Assembly: GCA_951406725.2 (NCBI GenBank)
Contig: OX597816.1
Coordinates: forward strand, 31,186,001 to 31,250,000
Source of the DNA: Octopus vulgaris
Taxonomy: Eukaryota
Direction of reading: 5' to 3'
Length of the DNA stretch: 64,000 bases
Position 1 is the stretch's first letter, and each line of letters begins with the position of its first letter. A program made the translations under genes and the position numbers. Positions 3,076-55,781 of this stretch are shown here, in pieces. Under the pieces are notes generated by a model. It ran no database searches and was not told the origin of the DNA. It was given only the letters and a program-made list of their open reading frames with translations.

Positions 3076-5225
3076 ACTATGTTCCAAGTGTGTTAGTCAT
3101 TCAGGAAATGTTTAAATGCAGAATAAATGGGATTGAAATGCATGGTATATTCCTTCAAGACCCACGTCTAACCCTAAATCCTTCCACTGATAGAAGTGAC
3201 GTAACGTTTGCAGAAAAGCACAAATATTGTGCCTCTGCCTCTAAGATCAACGCATGATCTTAATGGAGATAATATCTTCTCAGGTCCTAAAGTTGTCACC
3301 CGTCTTCTTTCAGATATTTTTCTTCGGTTACTGTGAATTTCCATACATTCTCCCGTGCAGCCTGTTCAAGGCTTCTCTTTACGTTTGCCAACTTGACTAG
3401 CAAGATAAAATAGTCAGTTGATGTTTATTTTGAGAAGCCAATTACTCGACATGTCACACAGTTCGGCTGAATCGAAAACATGCATATGCCAAGTGAGCCT
3501 CTTAATCACGCAGCCAGGCCTGATTCTATTGCGGATGTTAACGCTAAATTTCCGCTTGAAGAACGTAGCAAATCTCATTGTAATTTCATTAAACAGTAGT
3601 GACCTCTGCAGTTTAGTATTCAATTTAAGTTGTATACGAGAGAAACATAATTTTCCTTGGAGGAGTGTATTGTAGGTTGTCGAGAGTTCAACATCTGGGT
3701 CATCCTGGATTTTGCTACTATACAACATTAATAGAGTGGCGAAAGGTTATCATCTCCTGAAGTACTTATTATTGTAGTCATGAAATTTCCAATTACATAC
3801 TTCACTTATTGCTGCCTCCTATTCTCGAGGAACATTTGAGTGGTTTCTGTTTTGAATCACTCCCAGCCCAAAGGTCATTTCCTTTTAACGTGATATTTCC
3901 TTGTTGACACACAGTAATATCTTCCTGAAAAAGTTACTTTGCATATAGGATCTTCATTTTGCACATTGTGTCCATTGTGACTCCATTCCGAATGTGAAGT
4001 ACATACTCAGTATTTTACAGCAGCGGTAAATGCCTAATCACCATCACCTACCACGATGCTGTGCAATTCCTCGTGTTCAATGGCGTATCGAATCTGGTGT
4101 AATGATGCATAACCTCTATGCTGCCTTTCAAAAATGTCATTGCATATGAAAGAGTGTGTGTGGAAACGGGCAGAAATATTTGGCAGATTATATCAGTCAC
4201 CTACCACAAAGATTTCTCCTTTTACGTTATGGACATAACATCTGGGTTGGTAAGTAAGTTTTAGATGCGACACATGGATGTCTTGAAATCTACTCTCTAT
4301 CATCGATGTAAGCATTAGCATCACGTCTAAAACATCATTTTTTCATTTACATTCAATAAGGAAATTAAAGGACATTTAATAAGGGTTTATGCGTTCGGCT
4401 GCGGGTAAATTCTGCCCTAATCAGGCAATGCACTAATACGTTACATTTTTAATCTGGATAAAAAATGAGAAATATTTATGAAAGAACTACTCTATCATAA
4501 GGTTCAACATACCATTATTGTAGCCCGGCTATTAATTCTTACTATTCCCAGTTTAATTAAAAATTTGTCACTACCTTCCTTGTTAATTAGGTTCAACCCA
4601 CTGATTCCTTCAACACATCATTTACCAACAATGCATTCTGTATCTACATTTATTTTAGTATCTCAAGTTCGGTCTCCGTGTAGCTTGACAGTTCCTTTCA
4701 TTCGGATGACTTAAACTTGACACATATATCCTCACTGCCATCCACAGATATATTCATCGTACTTCTATGATTTGCCACTTGAGAATTATCAGTATATATA
4801 GTCTGATTGGCATACCGATTCTGCGTATTATTTTGACTTGTAAACTAGAATTACTTTCTTCGTATTGAACAACTTCTCATTGCAGACTTGTTCAAGCATT
4901 TCCGAACTAAGTGTGTGGGAGTTTTTGTCCATTCACATTACAGCTGCCACTATCACGTGCATATACATATATACGCATACTCTCACACACACACGCGTAC
5001 ACACATATATACTTATACACATAATTATATACATGCATATACATGTATATATAAATACGTCTGTATATGAATTTATATTTATTCAGTGTGTATATGCATA
5101 TAACTTAGATAACTTAGATATGTTTAGACCAAAGATTGGTCCAGGCCATGTCTAACTTAATAGCACCACCTGATAGGATTATTCGAATCCTGTTTAAGTC
5201 AAGTTTTGTTTAAGTCATGTTTTGT

Positions 5226-8200
5226 TCAAGTAGTGAGTTCTTGTTGGGTGAGTTGTATCAAGTTTTGTTCAAGTAGTGAGTTCTTGTTGGGTGAGTTGTA
5301 TCCAATTATGGGTGGCTTATCTGGTATTCTTTGAAGGAATCTATCCAGACTCCGTTTAAAGTTGATGGGATCCTTTTCCTCTTTGATCTCCCTCGGGACA
5401 ATGTTAAATAGGGCAGGGCCTGTTGAGGCAAAGAAATTATGTTGCAGTGTACATGTATGTCGTGATCTTGAATTGGGCAGGGGAAGTATGGCCCGTGGTC
5501 CCAGTCTTGGATGAACCATGAAGCTAACGTTAAGGTTGTTTGGGCAAAGTTGGCGGTATATTCTCCACATCGTACAAATGATGTACCGCTCACGGCGACG
5601 CTGGAGGGAGTAAAGTTTCAAGGCTTTAAGGCGATCCCAATAATCGAGAGCAGCCATGCCTTCAATTCGTTTAGTGAGTGCCCTCTGGGGTGACTCAATC
5701 CTGGAGATGTTTTGCCTTGTATGGGGAGACCACAGTGGGCAGCAGTAATCAAGGTGTGGCCGTACAAAGGAGGAGAAAATTGGTATGATGACACCTTGTT
5801 TTCTGGACCGGAAAGTTCTTAAGATCCAGGAACTAATCCTACGAGCTATATCGACCTTCTTGTTGATGTATGCACTCCAACTGAGATCGTCATCAACAAT
5901 TACACCCAGGTCTCTGATATTGTTAGAGGCTGTGAGCGGTTCCCCTGAAGGAAGAGAGTATGGCTGTTTTAGTGAGGAATTTCTTCCAAAATGCATCAGC
6001 TCAAACTTTCCCTCATTCAGTTGCATTTTGTTTCTGTCTACCCATTGACTCACAGCATATAGATCAGACTGGAGTTGAGTTCGGTCTGCTTCTTCATTGA
6101 CGATTTGCTGGAGCTTAGTGTCATCAGCAAATATTTTCACTTTACAGTAATGTACGACACTGGAAAGGTCGTTTATGTAAATTATGAAGAGTAGCGGACC
6201 CAAAACAGTCCCCTGGGGAACACCGCTGGTGACTTTTGCTGGTCTTGAGTGTACTCCAGCAACTACAACATGTTGTGTTCTATTCGCCAGGAAATACTTA
6301 ATCCAGTGTAGAACTTTTCCACAGATTCCAACATTTGCCAATTTTGAGAGTAGGATATTATGGTCTACCCTGTCGAACGCTTTACTGAAGTCAAGATATA
6401 TGACGTCAGAGTTCGAACCTGTTCCCAAGGCTTTGGGTACATCTTTAATGTGGTGTAAGAGCTGTGTTAGACAGTCCCTGCCACAGCGAAAGCCATGCTG
6501 ATTTGCATTTAGGAGTTTGTGGGTCTCCAGGAAGTCAGCTATCCTTGATCTTAACACTCTTTCAAACACTTTAATGATGTGGGAGGTGAGTGAGATTGGG
6601 CGATAGTTGACTGCGAGGGATCTGTTTCCCTGTTTGAAAACCTGGTTGACCGACTGGGATAGAAACTGTTTCGGTATATAACCTGTGTCTAACGAATTTC
6701 TCCAGAGGTTGGTCAGACGGACTGCAAGTTGGTGTCTACATTCCTTCAGGAGACTAGCGGGAAATCTATCAGGGCCTACAGCAGAGTAGTATTTGACCTC
6801 ATTTATTGCTGCTACGATGTCAGTGGCAGTGAAGGTTATGTCTGAGATTTTATGTTGGGAGTCAACTTCGTTTGTTTCTCTTACGTCAATATCAGTGGGA
6901 ACACTAAAGACAGAGCAGTATTGTTTCTGCAGTATTTCTGCCATTTCTTTAGCATCGTGTTGGGGAATGCCGTTATCACCAATCAATGGCCCAATGGGTG
7001 AGACACTGGTTCTATGCTTATTTGCATAAGAATAGAACACTTTTGGGTTCTGTTTGATGTTTTTGATTACCCATTGTTCATCCACAGCTCTTTGATTTTC
7101 AATGGAGGTTTTCATGTTGGTCTGCAGATGAAGTTTTTCCAGCTCTAGTCTTTTCATTGTTGTTGAATGTGGATGTTGCGTGTGGGAATATTTTAATTGG
7201 TTGATTTTTTTGTTGAGTCTTTTGATGCGCCTAATGAGTGTTTTTTTCTTTTTAGGGAGCCGGTTTCTGTTAGTGTTAGTAGATTTCGTGAGAGCGTGTT
7301 TAGAACATGCATAGGTGACAATGTTTTCAAAGTGCTGCCACGCGGTCTCAATATGAGAGGAATTGAGAGTAAAAGACCAGTCGATGGAAGACAGATCCTT
7401 TCTGATTGCTCCCCAGTCCGGTTTGTGGAAGTTTATGTTGTCAAATGGGTGCCATGGAGTGGGATTGGCTGGTTTGCTTTTTATATGTCGGGAATTAAAA
7501 TTGCAGACTACCATGTCGTGGTCTGAGAGGAAAGTTTTTTCGACTGAAATACTGTGAACGTAGCTAGAGTGATTGGTCAATATCAGATCCAAGATCGTTT
7601 TATTCTGCCTCGTTGGTTCGAGCATTAGCTGAGTCAGGAAGTACTCATCCATCAGATTAAAGAGCAGTTCTGCTGGTGCTCTATCTGATGTAGAGCACTT
7701 GCCTAACTTCAGAGTGTTTGTGGGCCAGTTCACATGAGGGAGGTTAAAATCACCCATCACTAGTATGTTTCGGGAGTTGTACTTCCGAAGGAAGGACTTG
7801 ACTTTGCTAAGGCACTCTTCAAAGCACTTTAGAGGTGCCTGGGGAGGCCTGTAAAGACCAACAATGATTATGTCCTTGGCTTTGCTGAATAGTGATACCG
7901 ATTCACAGTAGCCATTGGAAAATATGTTCTTAGCATCAAGTGTAAAGGAGTCATGGATAAAGATGTCTGTCCCTCTCTTGTTTCGGTCTGTGCGATCCGC
8001 ACGAACAATGGTGAAATCTTTTATTTTCACCTCTGCGTCCATATGGGTGTTGTTCAGGTGAGTCTCGGTAAGGATAAAGAAAGGGAAGCAATGTGCCATT
8101 TCGGCAAGCCAACTCTATATATATGGGATCTTCCATTTTTGAGCAATAATTCATGGGTTGATGCCACGTACATTTAACAGGAATGTCGAGGTAAGGGAAG

Positions 8201-8309
8201 TTGGTAATGGGTGAGTGGTCCTTGTGATTTGCATAGTTGGTTGGTGATAGCTCGCTGGATCTCCTGGCTTAGGTCGGCCTTTATATTTTCTAGGTATGTC
8301 AGTAAAAAA
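5226..8309 (-). pseudogene. LINE-A ORF2: apurinic endonuclease + reverse transcriptase (957-aa uninterrupted part 8099-5226)
   Basis: APE motifs LLNVRGINP (from 8180), LTETHL, YRPP, GDFN, SDH; RT motifs YRPISL, DFSKAFD, GVPQG, FADD; in-frame stops at 8153-8151 (TGA) and 8117-8115 (TAG) cut off the N-terminus. Confidence 0.93.
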
Positions 8310-9447
8310 GAGTTACTTGTTTGGTTTGCCACTTGGTCAGAGGATACGTACTTCATGTTGGCGTTATTTGGTGTTTTTTCATGGTTCTGTTTACGTTGTT
8401 TGATTGTAGGAGGGGAAACGGTTGTATTTTGTTATTGTTGTTGTCCTAGATTTCCTCTGTTCCTGTTTATATTTATTCTGTGATCGTTTTGTGCCCTTCA
8501 GATGGTGGTGTTTGCATTCTGGGTTCAGGCACATCCTTTGTGACACAGAAGTTTGGCACAGTTTAGGATGGAATAAGCTGCATCCATTGCCTTTTGTGCA
8601 TCCGTATTTAGGATCAGTACCATGGATTCTGTATTTAGGACAGTATTTGGGGTGGTGGTGGGGGCAGTTTTTTCCTGTTATACCATATGGACAGGTGCCT
8701 TTAACAAGTCTACGACATAAGGTAGGATGGGAAAAAGCACAGCATCCATTGTTGTTTGTGCCGCTGGGGCCAAATCTACAGTTGCCTTTAGAATAGTAAC
8801 GGCAGGTGATTTTATGTGGTTTTAGTAGTGGTTTTTTCTATTCTGGCTGTAGTAGCAGTAGTGTCAGAAGCAGGTTGTTGATTTTGTGATAGTGGGTTCT
8901 GGCTTGACAGAATGTGGACAAATCTGCAGCTGCCTTGAGAGTAGTAACGGCAGGTAGTTTTATGTGGATGTAGTAGTGATTTTTCTATTCTGGCTGTAGT
9001 AGCAGTAGTAGAGTGTTGTTGTTGTTGTTGTAGGACCATTGAAACTTGACTTGTAGCAGTATTAGAGGGTTGTTGTTGTTTTTGTTGCTGTAGCGGCAGT
9101 GAAACTTAACTTGGTTCGTCAGGTGCTGGTGCCAATGGAAGTAGGTCAGTTGATTGTTGCTGTTGAAGTGTCCCCTGACCTGTTGTAATTTGGTCATTTG
9201 GTGCACTGCATTCATTGGCAAGAATGGCTTCTAGTGGACCCATGTGCGCGTGGAAAATAGGAAATATTCTTTTAATCTCTTTTATTTTGTTTTCGATCTG
9301 TTTTACAGATCTGTAAAGGGATTTTTTCGCTAAGTCCTCAGTTATTTTACTGTAAACATTAGCTTCGTTGTGATGGATGAACCAAGCGTTAATCATTGCA
9401 GTAATTTCATTTTTAACCCAGCGGCGTTTTTGAATATTATTGGCCAT
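8174..9447 (-). pseudogene. LINE-A ORF1: Myb/SANT-like N-terminus, Q/T-rich linker, CCCH zinc-finger array
   Basis: ATG at 9447 (MANNIQKRRWVKNE...). The TAA at 9108 corresponds to CAA in the neighbouring repeat (AGT CAA GTT TCA). Extra A near 8835. Fingers CRYYSKGNC..C..H, CRRLVKGTC..C..H, CPKY..C..C..H, CQTS..C..C..H, then LKGT. A further frameshift near 8450. Confidence 0.8.
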
Positions 9448-49886: not shown

Positions 49887-51152
49887 AGTAGTAAGTAGCT
49901 GTTGGAACAGAAAGACGTGTTTCAGCTCGCTCTGACCAGTAAGTGGCTGTTGGAACAGAATACATATGAACCCAACTTTACAATTTTCAACTGAAAACTC
50001 TACTGAAAATTCTTCCTTCTCAAAAACGACAAAGCCTTAATTCCAGTGAAAGCTACGTTTTTGTATCGTGAACACGTATTATGAAAGATATAATACTGTA
50101 ACGATAATAATAATTATTCGTAAGTACACAATATTCCTATTAACAAACACACAATAGTTTACATTATCTCAGAACTATAACATATACCAGTACTATTGTC
50201 TCCTACTGTTCAATACACCACAGAAGTTGATATTTTGAATATTTCTATCCTTATTTGCCATTACCTATATTTATTACCTATATTTACTGTTATTATCTAT
50301 ATTTCTTGTTGCACAAACAACTTGGTTAAGTGACCAACAACGAATCGAAGACACTGAAAAACAATAGGTAGCTCACAACAACAGTAACAAAAAACACATC
50401 TCTAAATATCGCAACTGGTCGTACATTGAAGTGGATACTTTCATTAACTCATGGATCATTCTCTTTCAAACCGATAACATACATGCCTCAAACTTCAATT
50501 TCATTGCTAAAAGAGTTGGCCATCTCTTTAATAACCCTGCTTCATATCTCACTGTGAGAAACCTGTAACCACGTGGATAAACTAGCCCGAAATTTCTTAC
50601 TCACCACAGCCCATTTAATGTTATTATCTATATTTTTTTGTTGCACAAACAACTTGGTTAAGTGATCAACAACGAATCGAAGACACTGAAAAACAATAAA
50701 TAGTTCACAACAACAGCAACAGTAACAAAAAAAAAAAACAAAAAAAAACACATCTTTAAATATTGCAACTGGTCATATATATTGAAGTGGATACAACTAC
50801 AACATTCACATCAGCAGCTAAAAGAACTAATAGACCCGTCATTATCGTCATCATCATTGTTTCCATCTTCTACTGCTACCTCCCCTTCTTCATCTTCTCT
50901 CCCCCTCCTCCTGCTACTACTCCTAGTGGCCAAAGCCAAACATTCCATTCTACCTCGCCAGTAACCCATCCCAACCACTCTTACTTTCTCCATATCCCAC
51001 CACCATAGCTCCACTAACAACTCAAGTACCATTGCTACTACTACTACTATCTCAGCCAGTGTACAAAATCAACCACTGCTCCTTCCCCCTCTCCATTCAA
51101 GTCAAACAATTCTAAATCTCAAGCTATTCACAATCCACCGCCCACATAAACG

Positions 51153-52553
51153 ATGACGGGTAACGGAAATCCACGGACTGCCAGCTCAGAGAGCAACACT
51201 TGCCTGGCCACAGACATCATATTGAAAATCATCTCATCAACACAAAATCAAGATATAAAAAGTGTCTTGTCGAAATATGATATCAAACAGGAAAGTGGAG
51301 CAATATACAAAAATATTTTCACCAACTGTAAGTTTACGATGTTAAAGAAAGCAGCAGCTTTCTTGAATGATGGTGTCCAAGTTGAGCTCACAAAACCAAA
51401 CCTCACCAACTGGATTATAGCAAGGATTGAAAACTTCCTCCCGGAGACTTGCAAAATGTGTGACAAACAGTACTGCATTACATTTGGCCAAAAACCAGCT
51501 TTGGCATGCTTCATCTGTGGACAAGGAATACACGAAGCGTGCTACTTAAAAAAGATAAATAACCACACCATTCCAGATATTCTAGGCCTACACTGGCTAT
51601 GCAGTTATTGTTCACCAAGGGCCACAATAACGAATGAACCTAGGACCCTACCACAGACAGGCCGTTCTAAACAGATATTGATTGGCGAAACTGACATGGC
51701 AAATAAATCCTGCCACACACAGGCCATCCAAGTGCCTCTTGTAAATGACAAGAATGAAGACAATGACATGCAAACACCTACAAAACGAGAAACAGGAGAT
51801 CCTGCAGAAAAAGACCAAACTTCCCACGAAAAGAAACAGATCCAGAGCAAACGCTCAAATGAAGAAAGGCCAGTATGTATCCTTTACAGGCGCAACAAGT
51901 GCAAACATGGTCTTTCAGGTACAGGGTGCATGTACAGTCACCCCAAACCATGCAGACCATATATCAACTTCGGTACTGATCGAAAAAAAGGATGCCAAAA
52001 TGGCCGAGAATGTGAACTCAAAGATGTGCCGCAATTCGCTGAGAAAAAAGAATGTTTTGGTGAGAATTGCAAATTTATGCACCGGAAGGGTACAATTCGC
52101 ATAAAAACTACTGAACCCACACCACCAGGACCAAGCTCAGCAGGGTATGAAAACCATTTCCCAAAAATGCGGAAACCAGGTCATGGCTCAGTAGGGTATG
52201 AAAACCATTTCCCAAAAATGCGGAACCCAGGTCATGGCTCAACAGTGAATGAAAATCATGCTACTCAATTGCATACATCAGCTGTAACAAACCCAAACTC
52301 GCAGAAATTCGATATAGTAATGAATGAAAGCAGTTTTTTAGGCATAATCTACCAACTACAACAACAGCTGTACTCCATACAGACGACTCAGCAAAACCAG
52401 GCAACATTGATACAAAGGCTGACACCTGGACTTACAGGGCACATACAACAAATACAGACAGCCCAGCAGACCGAATATCCAGTCAGCACAGTCCCAGCAA
52501 CTACAACAGTCTTGCCAACAAAAGGGCAGATGTATCCGGTACAACAAGCATAA
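51153..52553 (+). CDS. LINE-B ORF1: PHD-like finger + CCCH zinc-finger array + Q-rich C-terminus
   Basis: CKMC..CFICGQGIHEAC..WLCSYC (C4HC3); CILYRRNKCKHGLSGTGCMYSH; CRPY..C..C; CFGENCKFMH RKGT. Confidence 0.88.
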   Translation: MTGNGNPRTASSESNTCLATDIILKIISSTQNQDIKSVLSKYDIKQESGAIYKNIFTNCKFTMLKKAAAFLNDGVQVELTKPNLTNWIIARIENFLPETCKMCDKQYCITFGQKPALACFICGQGIHEACYLKKINNHTIPDILGLHWLCSYCSPRATITNEPRTLPQTGRSKQILIGETDMANKSCHTQAIQVPLVNDKNEDNDMQTPTKRETGDPAEKDQTSHEKKQIQSKRSNEERPVCILYRRNKCKHGLSGTGCMYSHPKPCRPYINFGTDRKKGCQNGRECELKDVPQFAEKKECFGENCKFMHRKGTIRIKTTEPTPPGPSSAGYENHFPKMRKPGHGSVGYENHFPKMRNPGHGSTVNENHATQLHTSAVTNPNSQKFDIVMNESSFLGIIYQLQQQLYSIQTTQQNQATLIQRLTPGLTGHIQQIQTAQQTEYPVSTVPATTTVLPTKGQMYPVQQA

Positions 52554-55492
52554 TAACAGCAAATATCCAGGGTCTTTATCCGAAAACAAAACAGTGTAAA
52601 GTCCCTTTCTTGGAAGAATTAGCAACAGAAAACAACTCCAAAATAATTGGAATTACTGAAAGTCATCTCAACGAAAACATCCGCAACAGCGAAATCACAA
52701 TCAATAGATTCAACATCTTCAGATGTGATAGACAAGGCAGATCCCATGGGGGCGTTATCATGTATATCCATGATACCTATGCATGCATAGAACTTGTCAA
52801 TGAATCAAATGCCTACTGCAACCTGCTGTGCATAAAAATCATCCAACTTAATACAGTTGTAACAATAATGTACAGACTGCCAAACAGCCCAACATTATCC
52901 TTCACTGAGCCACTGACGAAGCTCCAACAAATTCTGGGAAACATGGCAAGTCCAATGCCAGACATTATCCTCCTTGGTGACTTCAACTTCCCTAACATCA
53001 TCTGGCCACATGGAAACATACTAAAACTGGGGACAAAAGCTGAACAAATACAGGCAGCCAAACTGTTGGAAGTCACAGAGAAATTATACCTCAAACAAAT
53101 GATGACAGAAGCAACAAGAAATAATAATACGATCGACTTGGTTTTCACCAACAACGAGGACACGCTATTTGACCTTCACTCAACCCCAACAATCCTTTCA
53201 GACCACAATATTATTGAAATGCATTTACACATTGGTAATGAGCCCAATGCCACAACTCTTAAACAAAAGGACATGCCAAAGCTATGCAGGTATGATTATC
53301 ACCAGGCAAATTGGGAAACTATTAACAACCAGTTACAAATCATTGACTGGGATCTCTACCTTACTGGGCCAGATAAACACAAGAAATTCTTAAACAAGAT
53401 CGAAGAAATATGTGAAAAAAATGTTCCTCTAAAGAAAACCAAGTCCACAAAAAAACCTGTACCACGGGAGCGAAAGATCCTGACGCGCAAAAGGTCAAGA
53501 CTAAGAAACAAAACATCTAAGCTGACATCAAAACATGAATTACAGAAAGTCCTTGACCAAATATACAGATTAGAAGACAATATAAAACAGCACTATGATG
53601 AAGAACGTAACAATGCAGAAAAGAGAGCCATAGAAAACATCAAGAAAAATCAAAAATGTTTCTACAGTTTTGCAAAGAAATACTCGAACACCAAGTCAAC
53701 AATAGGACCTCTCCAGAGACAAAATGGGGATGTAGTGAATAACCCTATTGAAATGGCAGAAATGTTGGGTCAACAGTATGAAAGTGTCTTCAAGGATATC
53801 GACCATACTAAACCTACCCTATCCGACATTGATTTCAACCCAGAAGACATAGCAAGAGCCATAGACAAGCTCTCCATGCACTCGGCTGCGGGGCCTGACG
53901 GTTTCAATGCCATGATACTTAAAAACTGCAAGGCACAATTGTCGAAACCCCTTTACATGATATGGAGGGAATCTATGGAGAATGGCAAAATACCAAATAC
54001 ATATAAAGAAGCACACATAACTCCAATACATAAAGGGGATAGCAAATCAAAACCAAAGAACTACCGACCAATCTCACTGACATCACACATTATCAAGGTC
54101 TTCGAAAGAATAGTTCGTGGAAAACTGGTTGAGTTCCTGGAATCCAACAATCTGATGAATTGCAACCAGCATGGATTCAGGTTAGGTAGATCATGCCTTT
54201 CCCAACTACTGGCACACCATGACCAAATCCTAGAAAATCTAGAGAATGGATACAACACAGATGTTATCTACCTCGACTTTGCCAAGGCATTTGACAAGGT
54301 AGATCATGGCATCCTGGGTCACAAACTTCGAAAGCTAGGAGTAGGAGGAAAAGTTGGTACATGGATACACGAGTTCCTTACAAATAGAACTCAAACAGTC
54401 ACTGTGAATGGAACCCATTCAACACCATCACCTGTGACCAGCAGTGTTCCTCAGGGTACAGTACTCGGCCCAATCCTGTTTCTCATCCTCATCTCTGACA
54501 TAGATGAAGATACAACCAGCAACGTCTCATCCTTTGCTGATGACACCAGGGTCATGAGACAAATCAAAGACGAGGTGGATACAGAGGCCTTACAAAAGGA
54601 CCTGACCACCATATATAAATGGCAGGAAACAAACAACATGTTGTTCAATGATAAGAAGTTTGAACTAATTCGCTACGGAACAGATCAAGATCTGAAAAAT
54701 ACAACAAACTACAGAAACCCATCAGGACAACAAATAATGGAAAAACAGTATGTGAAAGATTTAGGCATCCACATGGGAACCAACCTAAAATTCAGAGAAC
54801 ACCTTGACTCAGTCTGTCTTACTGCAAGAAAGTACAGCGGGTGGATCTTGCGCACCTTCAAATCAAGAGATACCTCAACAATGAAAACCCTCTGGAACAG
54901 TATGATACTTCCGAGGATTGACTACTGTTCTTAGTTGTGGTCACCAACAACAAAGGGCCAACTATCTAAGATAGAATCGCTCCAAAGAAATTCTACCTCA
55001 TACTTCTCAGAAACGAGGGACCTGGACTATTGGCAAAGACTCAAAACCTTGAGGATGTACTCAATGGAAAGAAGATTTGAGCGATACCGAATTATATACA
55101 TTTGGAAAATGATAGAGCAGAAGGTGCCAAACTTTGGTATCAAAACCCACCACTCACTGCGCCACGGAAGACGTTGCCAGCTGCCACCAATCAACAAAAA
55201 GGCTGGCCAGGAAGCAAAAACCCTGCGAGAATCAAGTCTGTTGGTTCGAGGAGCACAACTGTTCAACTCCATTCCGGTACATGTCAGAAATCTATCAGGA
55301 TGCAGTGTGGAATCATTCAAATTGCAACTGGATAGATACTTAAGCACCATTAGAGATGAACCCCATCTCCCAGGATATACACAACGAGCACAAACTGACT
55401 CAAACTCGCTCCTACACATGTCAAATTTAAGCAGAGAATACAACCTGGCAACCACACCAGACTCTGAGGGTGGAGTCTTCGACTTGGCCTGA
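52328..55492 (+). pseudogene. LINE-B ORF2 (APE + RT) with a single in-frame TAG at 54932-54934
   Basis: Frame open from 52328; ITANIQGL at ~52553-52576, ITESHL, GDFN, SDH, YRPISL, DFAKAFD, SVPQG, FADD; YCS*LWSP continues to 55492. Confidence 0.92.
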
Positions 55493-55525
55493 GCATGGAC
55501 TCAAACCCAAATGAAATGAAATGAA

Positions 55526-55781
55526 AATGTAACGGCATACGAAATACCTATTTCTTTACTACCCACAAGGAGCTAGACACAGAGAGGACAGACAAGGACA
55601 GACAAACGGAGTAAGTCGATTATATCGACCCCAGTGCGTAGCTGGTACTTATTTAATCGACCCCGAAAGGATGTACGGCAACGTCGACCTCGGCAGACTT
55701 TGGACTCAGAACGTAGCGGCAGACGAAATACCGCTAAGCATTTCGCCTGGAGTGCTAACGTTTTTAGCAGCTCACCGCATT
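55526..55781 (-). mobile_element. SINE type B, right part of the split array
   Basis: GTAACGGCATACGAAATACCTATTTC... matches the uninterrupted junction at 60901-60940. Confidence 0.88.

Follow-up and report, generated by a model that had tools for sequence, protein, structure and literature searches.

The ORF1/ORF2 junction of two octopus LINEs

Two APE-type long interspersed nuclear elements (LINEs) lie in the 64-kb stretch of Octopus vulgaris DNA analyzed here (the window): LINE-A on the minus strand, at about 9450-5100, and LINE-B on the plus strand, at about 51150-55530. Each has the parts expected of such an element, namely a first open reading frame (ORF1), a second (ORF2) with an APE endonuclease and a reverse transcriptase, and a tandem 3' tail. 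In both, the heptamer T_TTT_TTA lies at the point inside ORF1 at which the ORF2 frame opens, and comparison with related sequences points to it as a very probable site of programmed -1 frameshifting.

The minus strand of LINE-A reads TAA (8315-8313), CTC, TTTTTTA (8309-8303) and CTG at this point. In the ORF1 frame, TCT TTT TTA CTG encodes S-F-L-L, giving the heptamer (8303..8309) the codon register xxT-Phe-Leu, and the TAA at 8313..8315, 3 nucleotides (nt) upstream of the heptamer, bounds the -1 frame. Direct reading thus bore out the heptamer, register and upstream stop of the original prediction. From 8315, the -1 frame is translated as *LFFTDIPRK...TMQITR...FLLNVRGINP*IIAQKWKIPYI*SWLAEM; it is open from the heptamer to 8154, past LLNVRGINP, and is the frame of the 957-residue ORF2, as had been claimed. 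The C-terminal frame of ORF1 (8174..8425, minus strand), which contains the Phe-Leu (FL) pair, a predicted helix and a tail, ends at a TAA (8176-8174). Its dual-coding overlap with the -1 frame spans 8175..8309, where the -1 frame provides a 45-codon linker leading to the first Asn of the endonuclease (8174-8172). An ATG in the ORF2 frame, also foreseen, is present at 8232..8234 and is a possible reinitiation site; it precedes the ORF1 stop by 58 nt and the endonuclease Asn by 20 codons. TTTTTTA occurs 51 times on the two strands of the window, and the chance of an in-register copy in the first five codons of one given overlap is about 0.002.

LINE-A ORF2 (5226..8174, minus strand; PF14529 and PF00078) carries a TGA at 8151..8153 and a TAG at 8115..8117; it was seen as a 962-codon frame (8114-5229), with the 957 residues counted from a Met at 8099 that lies inside the endonuclease. 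LINE-A positions 8000-8900 were compared with contigs from four public sequencing runs on three coded organisms; none of the runs recorded as RNA contained this stretch. In all four, position 8152 belonged to a sense codon in 98.6-100% of the depth and position 8117 in 99.8-100%, confirming that both stops are specific to this copy and secondary, as originally supposed. Among the 40 of 73 variant rows listed, none fell in the heptamer (8303-8309) or in the AUG at 8234-8232; because 33 rows lie outside that listing, the contig variants do not separate the heptamer from the AUG.

The upstream part of ORF1 is likewise disturbed in this copy. The CCCH zinc-finger array (8391..8837, minus strand; zf-CCCH_4, E = 0.001, below the curated cut-off) is offset from the sequence on either side by indels specific to this copy, one near 8832 and one near 8419, placing the fingers in the ORF2 frame and not in the FL frame. 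The run contigs have one base fewer at 8832, and 2 extra nt behind 8419 occur in the contigs of all four runs, at 5-100% of depth; together these differences join the ORF1 pieces, fingers included, in the FL frame. A profile of the FL segments of 49 relatives scored the LINE-A FL frame alone (11.8 bits), and an ungapped FL-helix profile from 86 proteins gave it no score; the alignment of the FL helix has a one-residue offset in the LINE-A subgroup. This LINE-A copy is decayed. The contigs of all four runs also diverge from it at 8200-8202, one of them having 145 letters in place of 43 (102 nt or 34 codons more, frame kept), so the 45-codon linker of this copy may be a shortened form.

In LINE-B, on the plus strand, T_TTT_TTA occupies 52334..52340 in the same register, 6 nt past the TGA (52325-52327) of the -1 frame. 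ORF1 (51153..52553) encodes a PHD-like finger, a CCCH array and the FL helix, and the ORF2 frame (52328..55492), which has an internal stop at 54932-54934, contains no AUG before the endonuclease.

Conservation of the heptamer and the -1 frame

To place the junction in its family, ORF1 relatives were collected. A search with one ORF1 relative matched 2,333 representative proteins (50% identity) at E ≤ 0.001; the 150 best matches were taken, and the protein set numbered 154. A tail of at least 40 residues followed the last CCCH finger in 129 of the 154, and FL was found in 120 of these 129 tails (28 expected by shuffling). In an AlphaFold model built from an 86-sequence alignment, the Phe of FL opens the last helix (residues 403-433 of P0071). 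Since FL is conserved at a predicted helix start, a purely protein-level reason for the motif is a real rival, and a comparison at the DNA level was needed. When the ORF1 model was used for a fold search, nothing matched at E ≤ 0.001, and the best of the weak rows were the CCCH fingers of CPSF30.

DNA relatives were sought with a degenerate pattern that covers the last two fingers and fits 128 of the 154 proteins. It found 117 metagenome loci, 80 of them with long flanks, and four loci in prokaryote assemblies (L118-L121, in metagenome-assembled genomes, likely contaminated by eukaryotic host DNA), and no locus in viral contigs. The 121 loci formed 74 clusters at 75% finger identity, and one representative per cluster is counted below unless stated. 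Median finger identity between representatives was 45%, the pattern itself fixing 11 of the 31 positions.

In 54 of the 61 clusters with FL, T_TTT_TTA encoded the first ORF1 FL downstream of the CCCH fingers, and 55 had it at some FL, where codon use predicts 1.7%; among control FL pairs of the same loci, the heptamer was used in 0/42 in ORF1 and 1/92 in ORF2. The varied synonymous codons that the original prediction had named as evidence against itself were therefore not seen. Of 37 representatives with an endonuclease match, 34 had ORF2 in the -1 frame. Between the heptamer and either the ORF1 stop or the endonuclease, no stop interrupted the -1 frame in 32/33 (median, 74 codons), whereas the +1 control was stop-free in 0/33 and synonymous resampling expects 2.7 open -1 frames. 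Upstream of the heptamer, the first stop lay a median of 3 codons away in the -1 frame and 26 codons away in the +1 control. All but one of the TTTTTTA matches between fingers and endonuclease (33/34) were in tandem-slip register, the other copy having an upstream ORF1 indel, and the base following the heptamer was G in 91% of 55 relatives and C in LINE-A. The family-wide heptamer is a real, conserved signal.

Start codons were not similarly maintained. No AUG preceded the endonuclease Asn in 18 of 31 intact -1 junctions, and only 4/31 had one no more than 15 nt from the ORF1 stop, so that the stop-start arrangement of SART1 is not seen. Nor is the position of AUG 8234 conserved in the family, or that of any other AUG; an AUG 8234 both conserved and required, with a dispensable heptamer, was the other outcome that had been named as counting against frameshifting. 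In LINE-A and in 12/31 relatives, 2 nt separate the ORF1 stop from the first endonuclease Asn codon that follows; the stop is probably created by the hydrophobic codons of ORF2. One representative, L068 (Ga0115565_10011116; one contig), has ORF1 and ORF2 fused in frame, with 1,102 codons after the fingers and an unaltered heptamer. Wherever an intact junction is visible in its cluster mates, ORF2 is in -1, and L068 may be an indel, an assembly error or a natural single-ORF variant.

Nineteen clusters lacked an in-frame T_TTT_TTA. Ten of these carry another slippery-type heptamer early in the open -1 frame (G_GAU_UUU in 5, G_GUU_UUU in 2, A_AAA_AAC in 2 and U_UUU_UUG in 1), L056 has the usual heptamer in register with ORF2 behind an ORF1 indel, and 5 were too short or broken to judge. 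G_GUU_UUU is a shift site. A review lists both G_GAU_UUU and A_AAA_AAC among known shift sites (PMC5009743).

Several exceptions fall in a second LINE clade. Its ORF2 is only 25-33% identical to that of LINE-B, and its branch is long and has full support in an endonuclease tree (FastTree, 38 sequences, midpoint root, built from the elements themselves without named references). In 15 of its loci (L019, L021, L022, L024, L026, L043, L048, L054, L059, L060, L066, L070, L073, L080 and L120) a long ORF2 frame spans the junction, and in every one of them that frame is -1 and has a slippery-type heptamer 3-54 nt past its opening; the heptamer definition is permissive (background 0.97% per codon, or 0.16 per 18 codons), and the 15 loci amount to about five independent groups. 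The site encodes K-N, D-F or V-F. Clade members begin the endonuclease with WN[IV]R, share the CCCH-array ORF1 and use four different slippery heptamers where the -1 frame opens, which suggests ORF1 module exchange or very deep ancestry.

In the same tree, L044 is the sister of LINE-A (support, 0.90), and LINE-A and LINE-B fall in one clade, nearly all members of which carry U_UUU_UUA. The likeliest reading of the shared site is thus one signal handed down by common descent, not two convergent origins. The original prediction had taken the same heptamer, register and position in the two elements as independent instances unlikely to be due to chance: non-chance conservation stands, as the 54 of 61 clusters indicate, and independence does not. 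Better independent support comes from the second clade with its different heptamers.

Probable programmed frameshifting and rival explanations

Collectively, these findings make programmed -1 frameshifting at U_UUU_UUA, producing an ORF1-ORF2 fusion, a reading in which we place high confidence. The junction has an X_XXY_YYZ heptamer in the register of the upstream ORF, an open downstream -1 frame, and nucleotide conservation beyond what the protein needs. A minority of ribosomes would slip back one base at U_UUU_UUA, where the ORF2 frame opens inside ORF1. As the heptamer is predicted to fall in the first turn of the last helix of the ORF1 protein (ORF1p), the fusion would keep the N-terminal domain and the CCCH fingers and drop the helix and the Gln/Pro tail, continuing through a low-complexity linker of 45-200 residues into the endonuclease and reverse transcriptase. 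A low slip rate would presumably set the ratio of ORF1p to ORF2 protein (ORF2p), as in gag:gag-pol. A domain search found no protease encoded in ORF2, so the fusion would stay joined unless cut by the host. In some lineages, a hairpin 7-8 nt downstream may act as stimulator.

Several observations weigh against this interpretation. Downstream of the LINE-A heptamer there was no fold beyond that of shuffled sequences (z, +1.1 to +1.4; +1.1 over the next 80 nt), LINE-B had no strong 3' structure (z, +1.5 at 80 nt and -1.1 at 120 nt), and a simple scan found no simple H-type pseudoknot downstream in either. A z below -2 just downstream was reached by only 20-24% of 55 relatives and at 0/10 second-clade sites. 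LINE-A keeps its in-frame AUG 8234, which has a counterpart about as far away (-19) in the sister L044, and some Met occurs in the linker at 13/31 junctions, at scattered positions. Three of the 37 representatives do not have ORF2 in -1 (L061 and L056, which look decayed, and the in-frame fusion L068), and L028, L087 and L121 have no convincing site. Finally, the clusters are related, so that the counts overstate independence, and all loci come from one zinc-finger pattern.

Some structure was nonetheless detected among the relatives as a group. For the 55 relatives, mean z was -0.9 for windows starting 4-8 nt downstream, compared with -0.4 to 0 for windows not covering that stretch, and clear hairpins with a 7-8 nt spacer were present in L029, L063, L071, L078 and L103. 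Any 3' structure is therefore lineage-specific, since hairpins occur in a minority of relatives only. One lineage (L052, L063, L071, L078, L103 and L116) has a CCGCC...GGCGG hairpin starting 7-8 nt past the heptamer.

One rival holds that FL is kept for protein reasons, as a helix start after an N-cap residue, and that ORF2 is translated by termination-reinitiation or non-AUG initiation, starting in LINE-A at AUG 8234. FL does lie at a predicted helix start, with S/D/H/P/N/A before it and E/G/D after it in 120/129 protein tails, and reinitiation is the model given for SART1 and L1 in the relevant part of a review (PMC2881922). A Met also occurs 19-22 residues before the endonuclease Asn in LINE-A, L044 and 2/23 of the closest ORF2 proteins (gene-caller starts), and AUG 8234-8232, as noted, was free of variants among those listed. 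A protein motif, however, leaves the codons free, yet 54 of the 61 clusters share T_TTT_TTA; it does not explain why the -1 frame opens right at the heptamer, and the second clade has K-N, D-F or V-F at the site. With no AUG before the endonuclease in 18/31 relatives and in LINE-B, reinitiation cannot be the family rule, although AUG 8234 may serve as a side route in LINE-A. We consider this rival as a whole improbable.

Two further rivals would act on the RNA. If TTTTTTAG were a 3' splice acceptor, a donor in ORF1 could be joined to ORF2 by splicing, in keeping with the G that follows the heptamer in 91% of 55 relatives and with the Octopus vulgaris gene model P0002, which joins a LINE-B-family ORF1 to ORF2 at the Arg right after the heptamer. 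This is very unlikely: LINE-A has C, not G, after the heptamer and hence lacks the AG, as do the A_AAA_AAC and most G_GAU_UUU sites; the acceptor-like sites are all-T in 49/49, with 0 of 7 synonymous pyrimidine variants; and the upstream pyrimidine tract is absent (0.42 vs 0.43 background). Consensus GTRAG donors in the needed phase were found in 0/39, an absence that arises because such donors put a stop in ORF1. Slippage of RNA polymerase on the T6 run, adding one U and yielding a minority of in-frame fused transcripts, seems to us the least likely. LINE-A, LINE-B and 55 clusters do have a T6 run, and a homopolymer works without the 3' RNA structure that most members lack; but the register is fixed (33/34 TTTTTTA matches), G_GAU_UUU offers a run of only 4 U, and slipped RNAs should leave fused daughters, of which there is 1 in 37 representatives, with its heptamer unchanged.

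Returning to ribosomal frameshifting, a broader and speculative extension is that a widespread ORF1 module of CCCH fingers, slippery site and terminal helix occurs in two or more distantly related clades of animal LINEs, where its product is a Gag-Pol-like ORF1-ORF2 fusion that stays uncleaved. As a 3' RNA structure is missing from most members, another stimulator is supposed here: the RNA-binding fingers of ORF1p, for example, or the nascent peptide, would stimulate the slip and make ORF2 output self-regulating. We regard this extension as doubtful.

Element architecture and known systems

Outside the junction, the two elements are strongly diverged. Their ORF2 products share 38% identity over 950 residues, and at the DNA level only 413 nt can be aligned, at 65%. 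A Myb/SANT-like domain opens LINE-A ORF1 (9106..9447, minus strand, ATG at 9447; PF13837, E = 1e-5, 26.3 bits vs a cut-off of 27), a place taken in LINE-B and most relatives by a PHD-like finger, matched below the cut-off in LINE-B (E = 0.015) and P0005 (E = 0.002). A weak search returned no full-length relatives of LINE-A ORF1 at E ≤ 1e-8, and LINE-B ORF1 is 86-95% identical to three Octopus vulgaris proteins. Relative to one O. vulgaris protein, P0001, LINE-B ORF1 shows a local frame swap in the last finger (~52015-52050, plus strand) through compensating indels. A duplicated segment of ~45 nt at the end of LINE-A ORF2 (5300-5195, minus strand) lengthens the C-terminus. A profile search gave no RNase H match in ORF2. 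The tandem tail consists of TATCTAAGT units in LINE-A (5101..5120, minus strand) and of AAATG units in LINE-B; ahead of these differing tails, near both LINE ends (5170-5101, minus strand; 55468-55530, plus strand), lies a similar GGTGG...TGGCCTG motif, likely a 3' recognition element.

ORF2 translation in LINEs has been treated as unconventional initiation in sections of two reviews (PMC2881922, PMC5009743). If the frameshift is real, a large LINE group (2,333 ORF1 relatives at 50% clustering) would have a conserved and different route to ORF2, and the active enzyme would be an ORF1-ORF2 fusion carrying its own RNA-binding fingers. For annotation, ORF2 proteins called from the first AUG begin inside the endonuclease, and a -1 offset at the ORF1/ORF2 junction is not decay. 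The seven-base heptamer offers a test by synonymous mutation. No description of a conserved slippery site in animal LINEs was found among open-access titles and abstract openings, Repbase and subscription journals being outside that search. Partial accounts mention a possible +1 shift in Paramecium LINEs and a frameshift precedent in Drosophila HeT-A gag. The octopus elements would thus represent a known mechanism, in all probability -1 frameshifting, in a setting, animal LINEs, where it has hardly been described.

A close match is the gag-pol site of human immunodeficiency virus type 1 (HIV-1), which is described in part of a review as U_UUU_UUA, with the same heptamer and register and an RNA-binding gene overlapping a -1 reverse-transcriptase gene (PMC5009743). 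The G after the heptamer is common to HIV-1 and most relatives, and the 3' GGG is stated there to matter in HIV (PMC5009743). Unlike HIV-1, the octopus LINEs are elements without long terminal repeats (non-LTR), with an ORF2 lacking a protease, no conserved 3' structure and an overlap of 45-200 codons. The alphavirus frameshift site is also U_UUU_UUA, in RNA viruses that make a short transframe protein and not a polymerase fusion. Within this one kind of site, the review's passage on alphaviruses reports a stem-loop in some and an unstructured 3' sequence in Semliki Forest virus (PMC5009743).

Among LINEs, the elements may resemble those of the CR1/L2 lineage with a PHD ORF1, with APE and reverse transcriptase but no RNase H match, a candidate PHD-like finger (LINE-B type) and a short tandem 3' tail (PMC4120745); the main text of that survey makes no mention of a CCCH array, a Myb-like domain, a frameshift or an overlap. 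In SART1, by UAAUG coupling, and in mammalian L1, by unconventional reinitiation, ORF2 translation from a bicistronic RNA depends on that of ORF1, according to the sections that treat them (PMC2881922, PMC2699510, PMC5009743). Those elements make a separate ORF2p, whereas in the octopus LINEs the -1 overlap is long, a stop-start is not conserved and a fusion is predicted. The Dictyostelium elements TRE5-A and TRE3-A are LINEs of the APE type, and according to one paper their ORF2 proteins "require a -1 frameshift" (PMC5911963). These amoeba elements have their zinc finger in ORF2, and the passage describing them names no slippery site (PMC5911963); in the family of the octopus LINEs, unlike that account, a heptamer is conserved across dozens of lineages.

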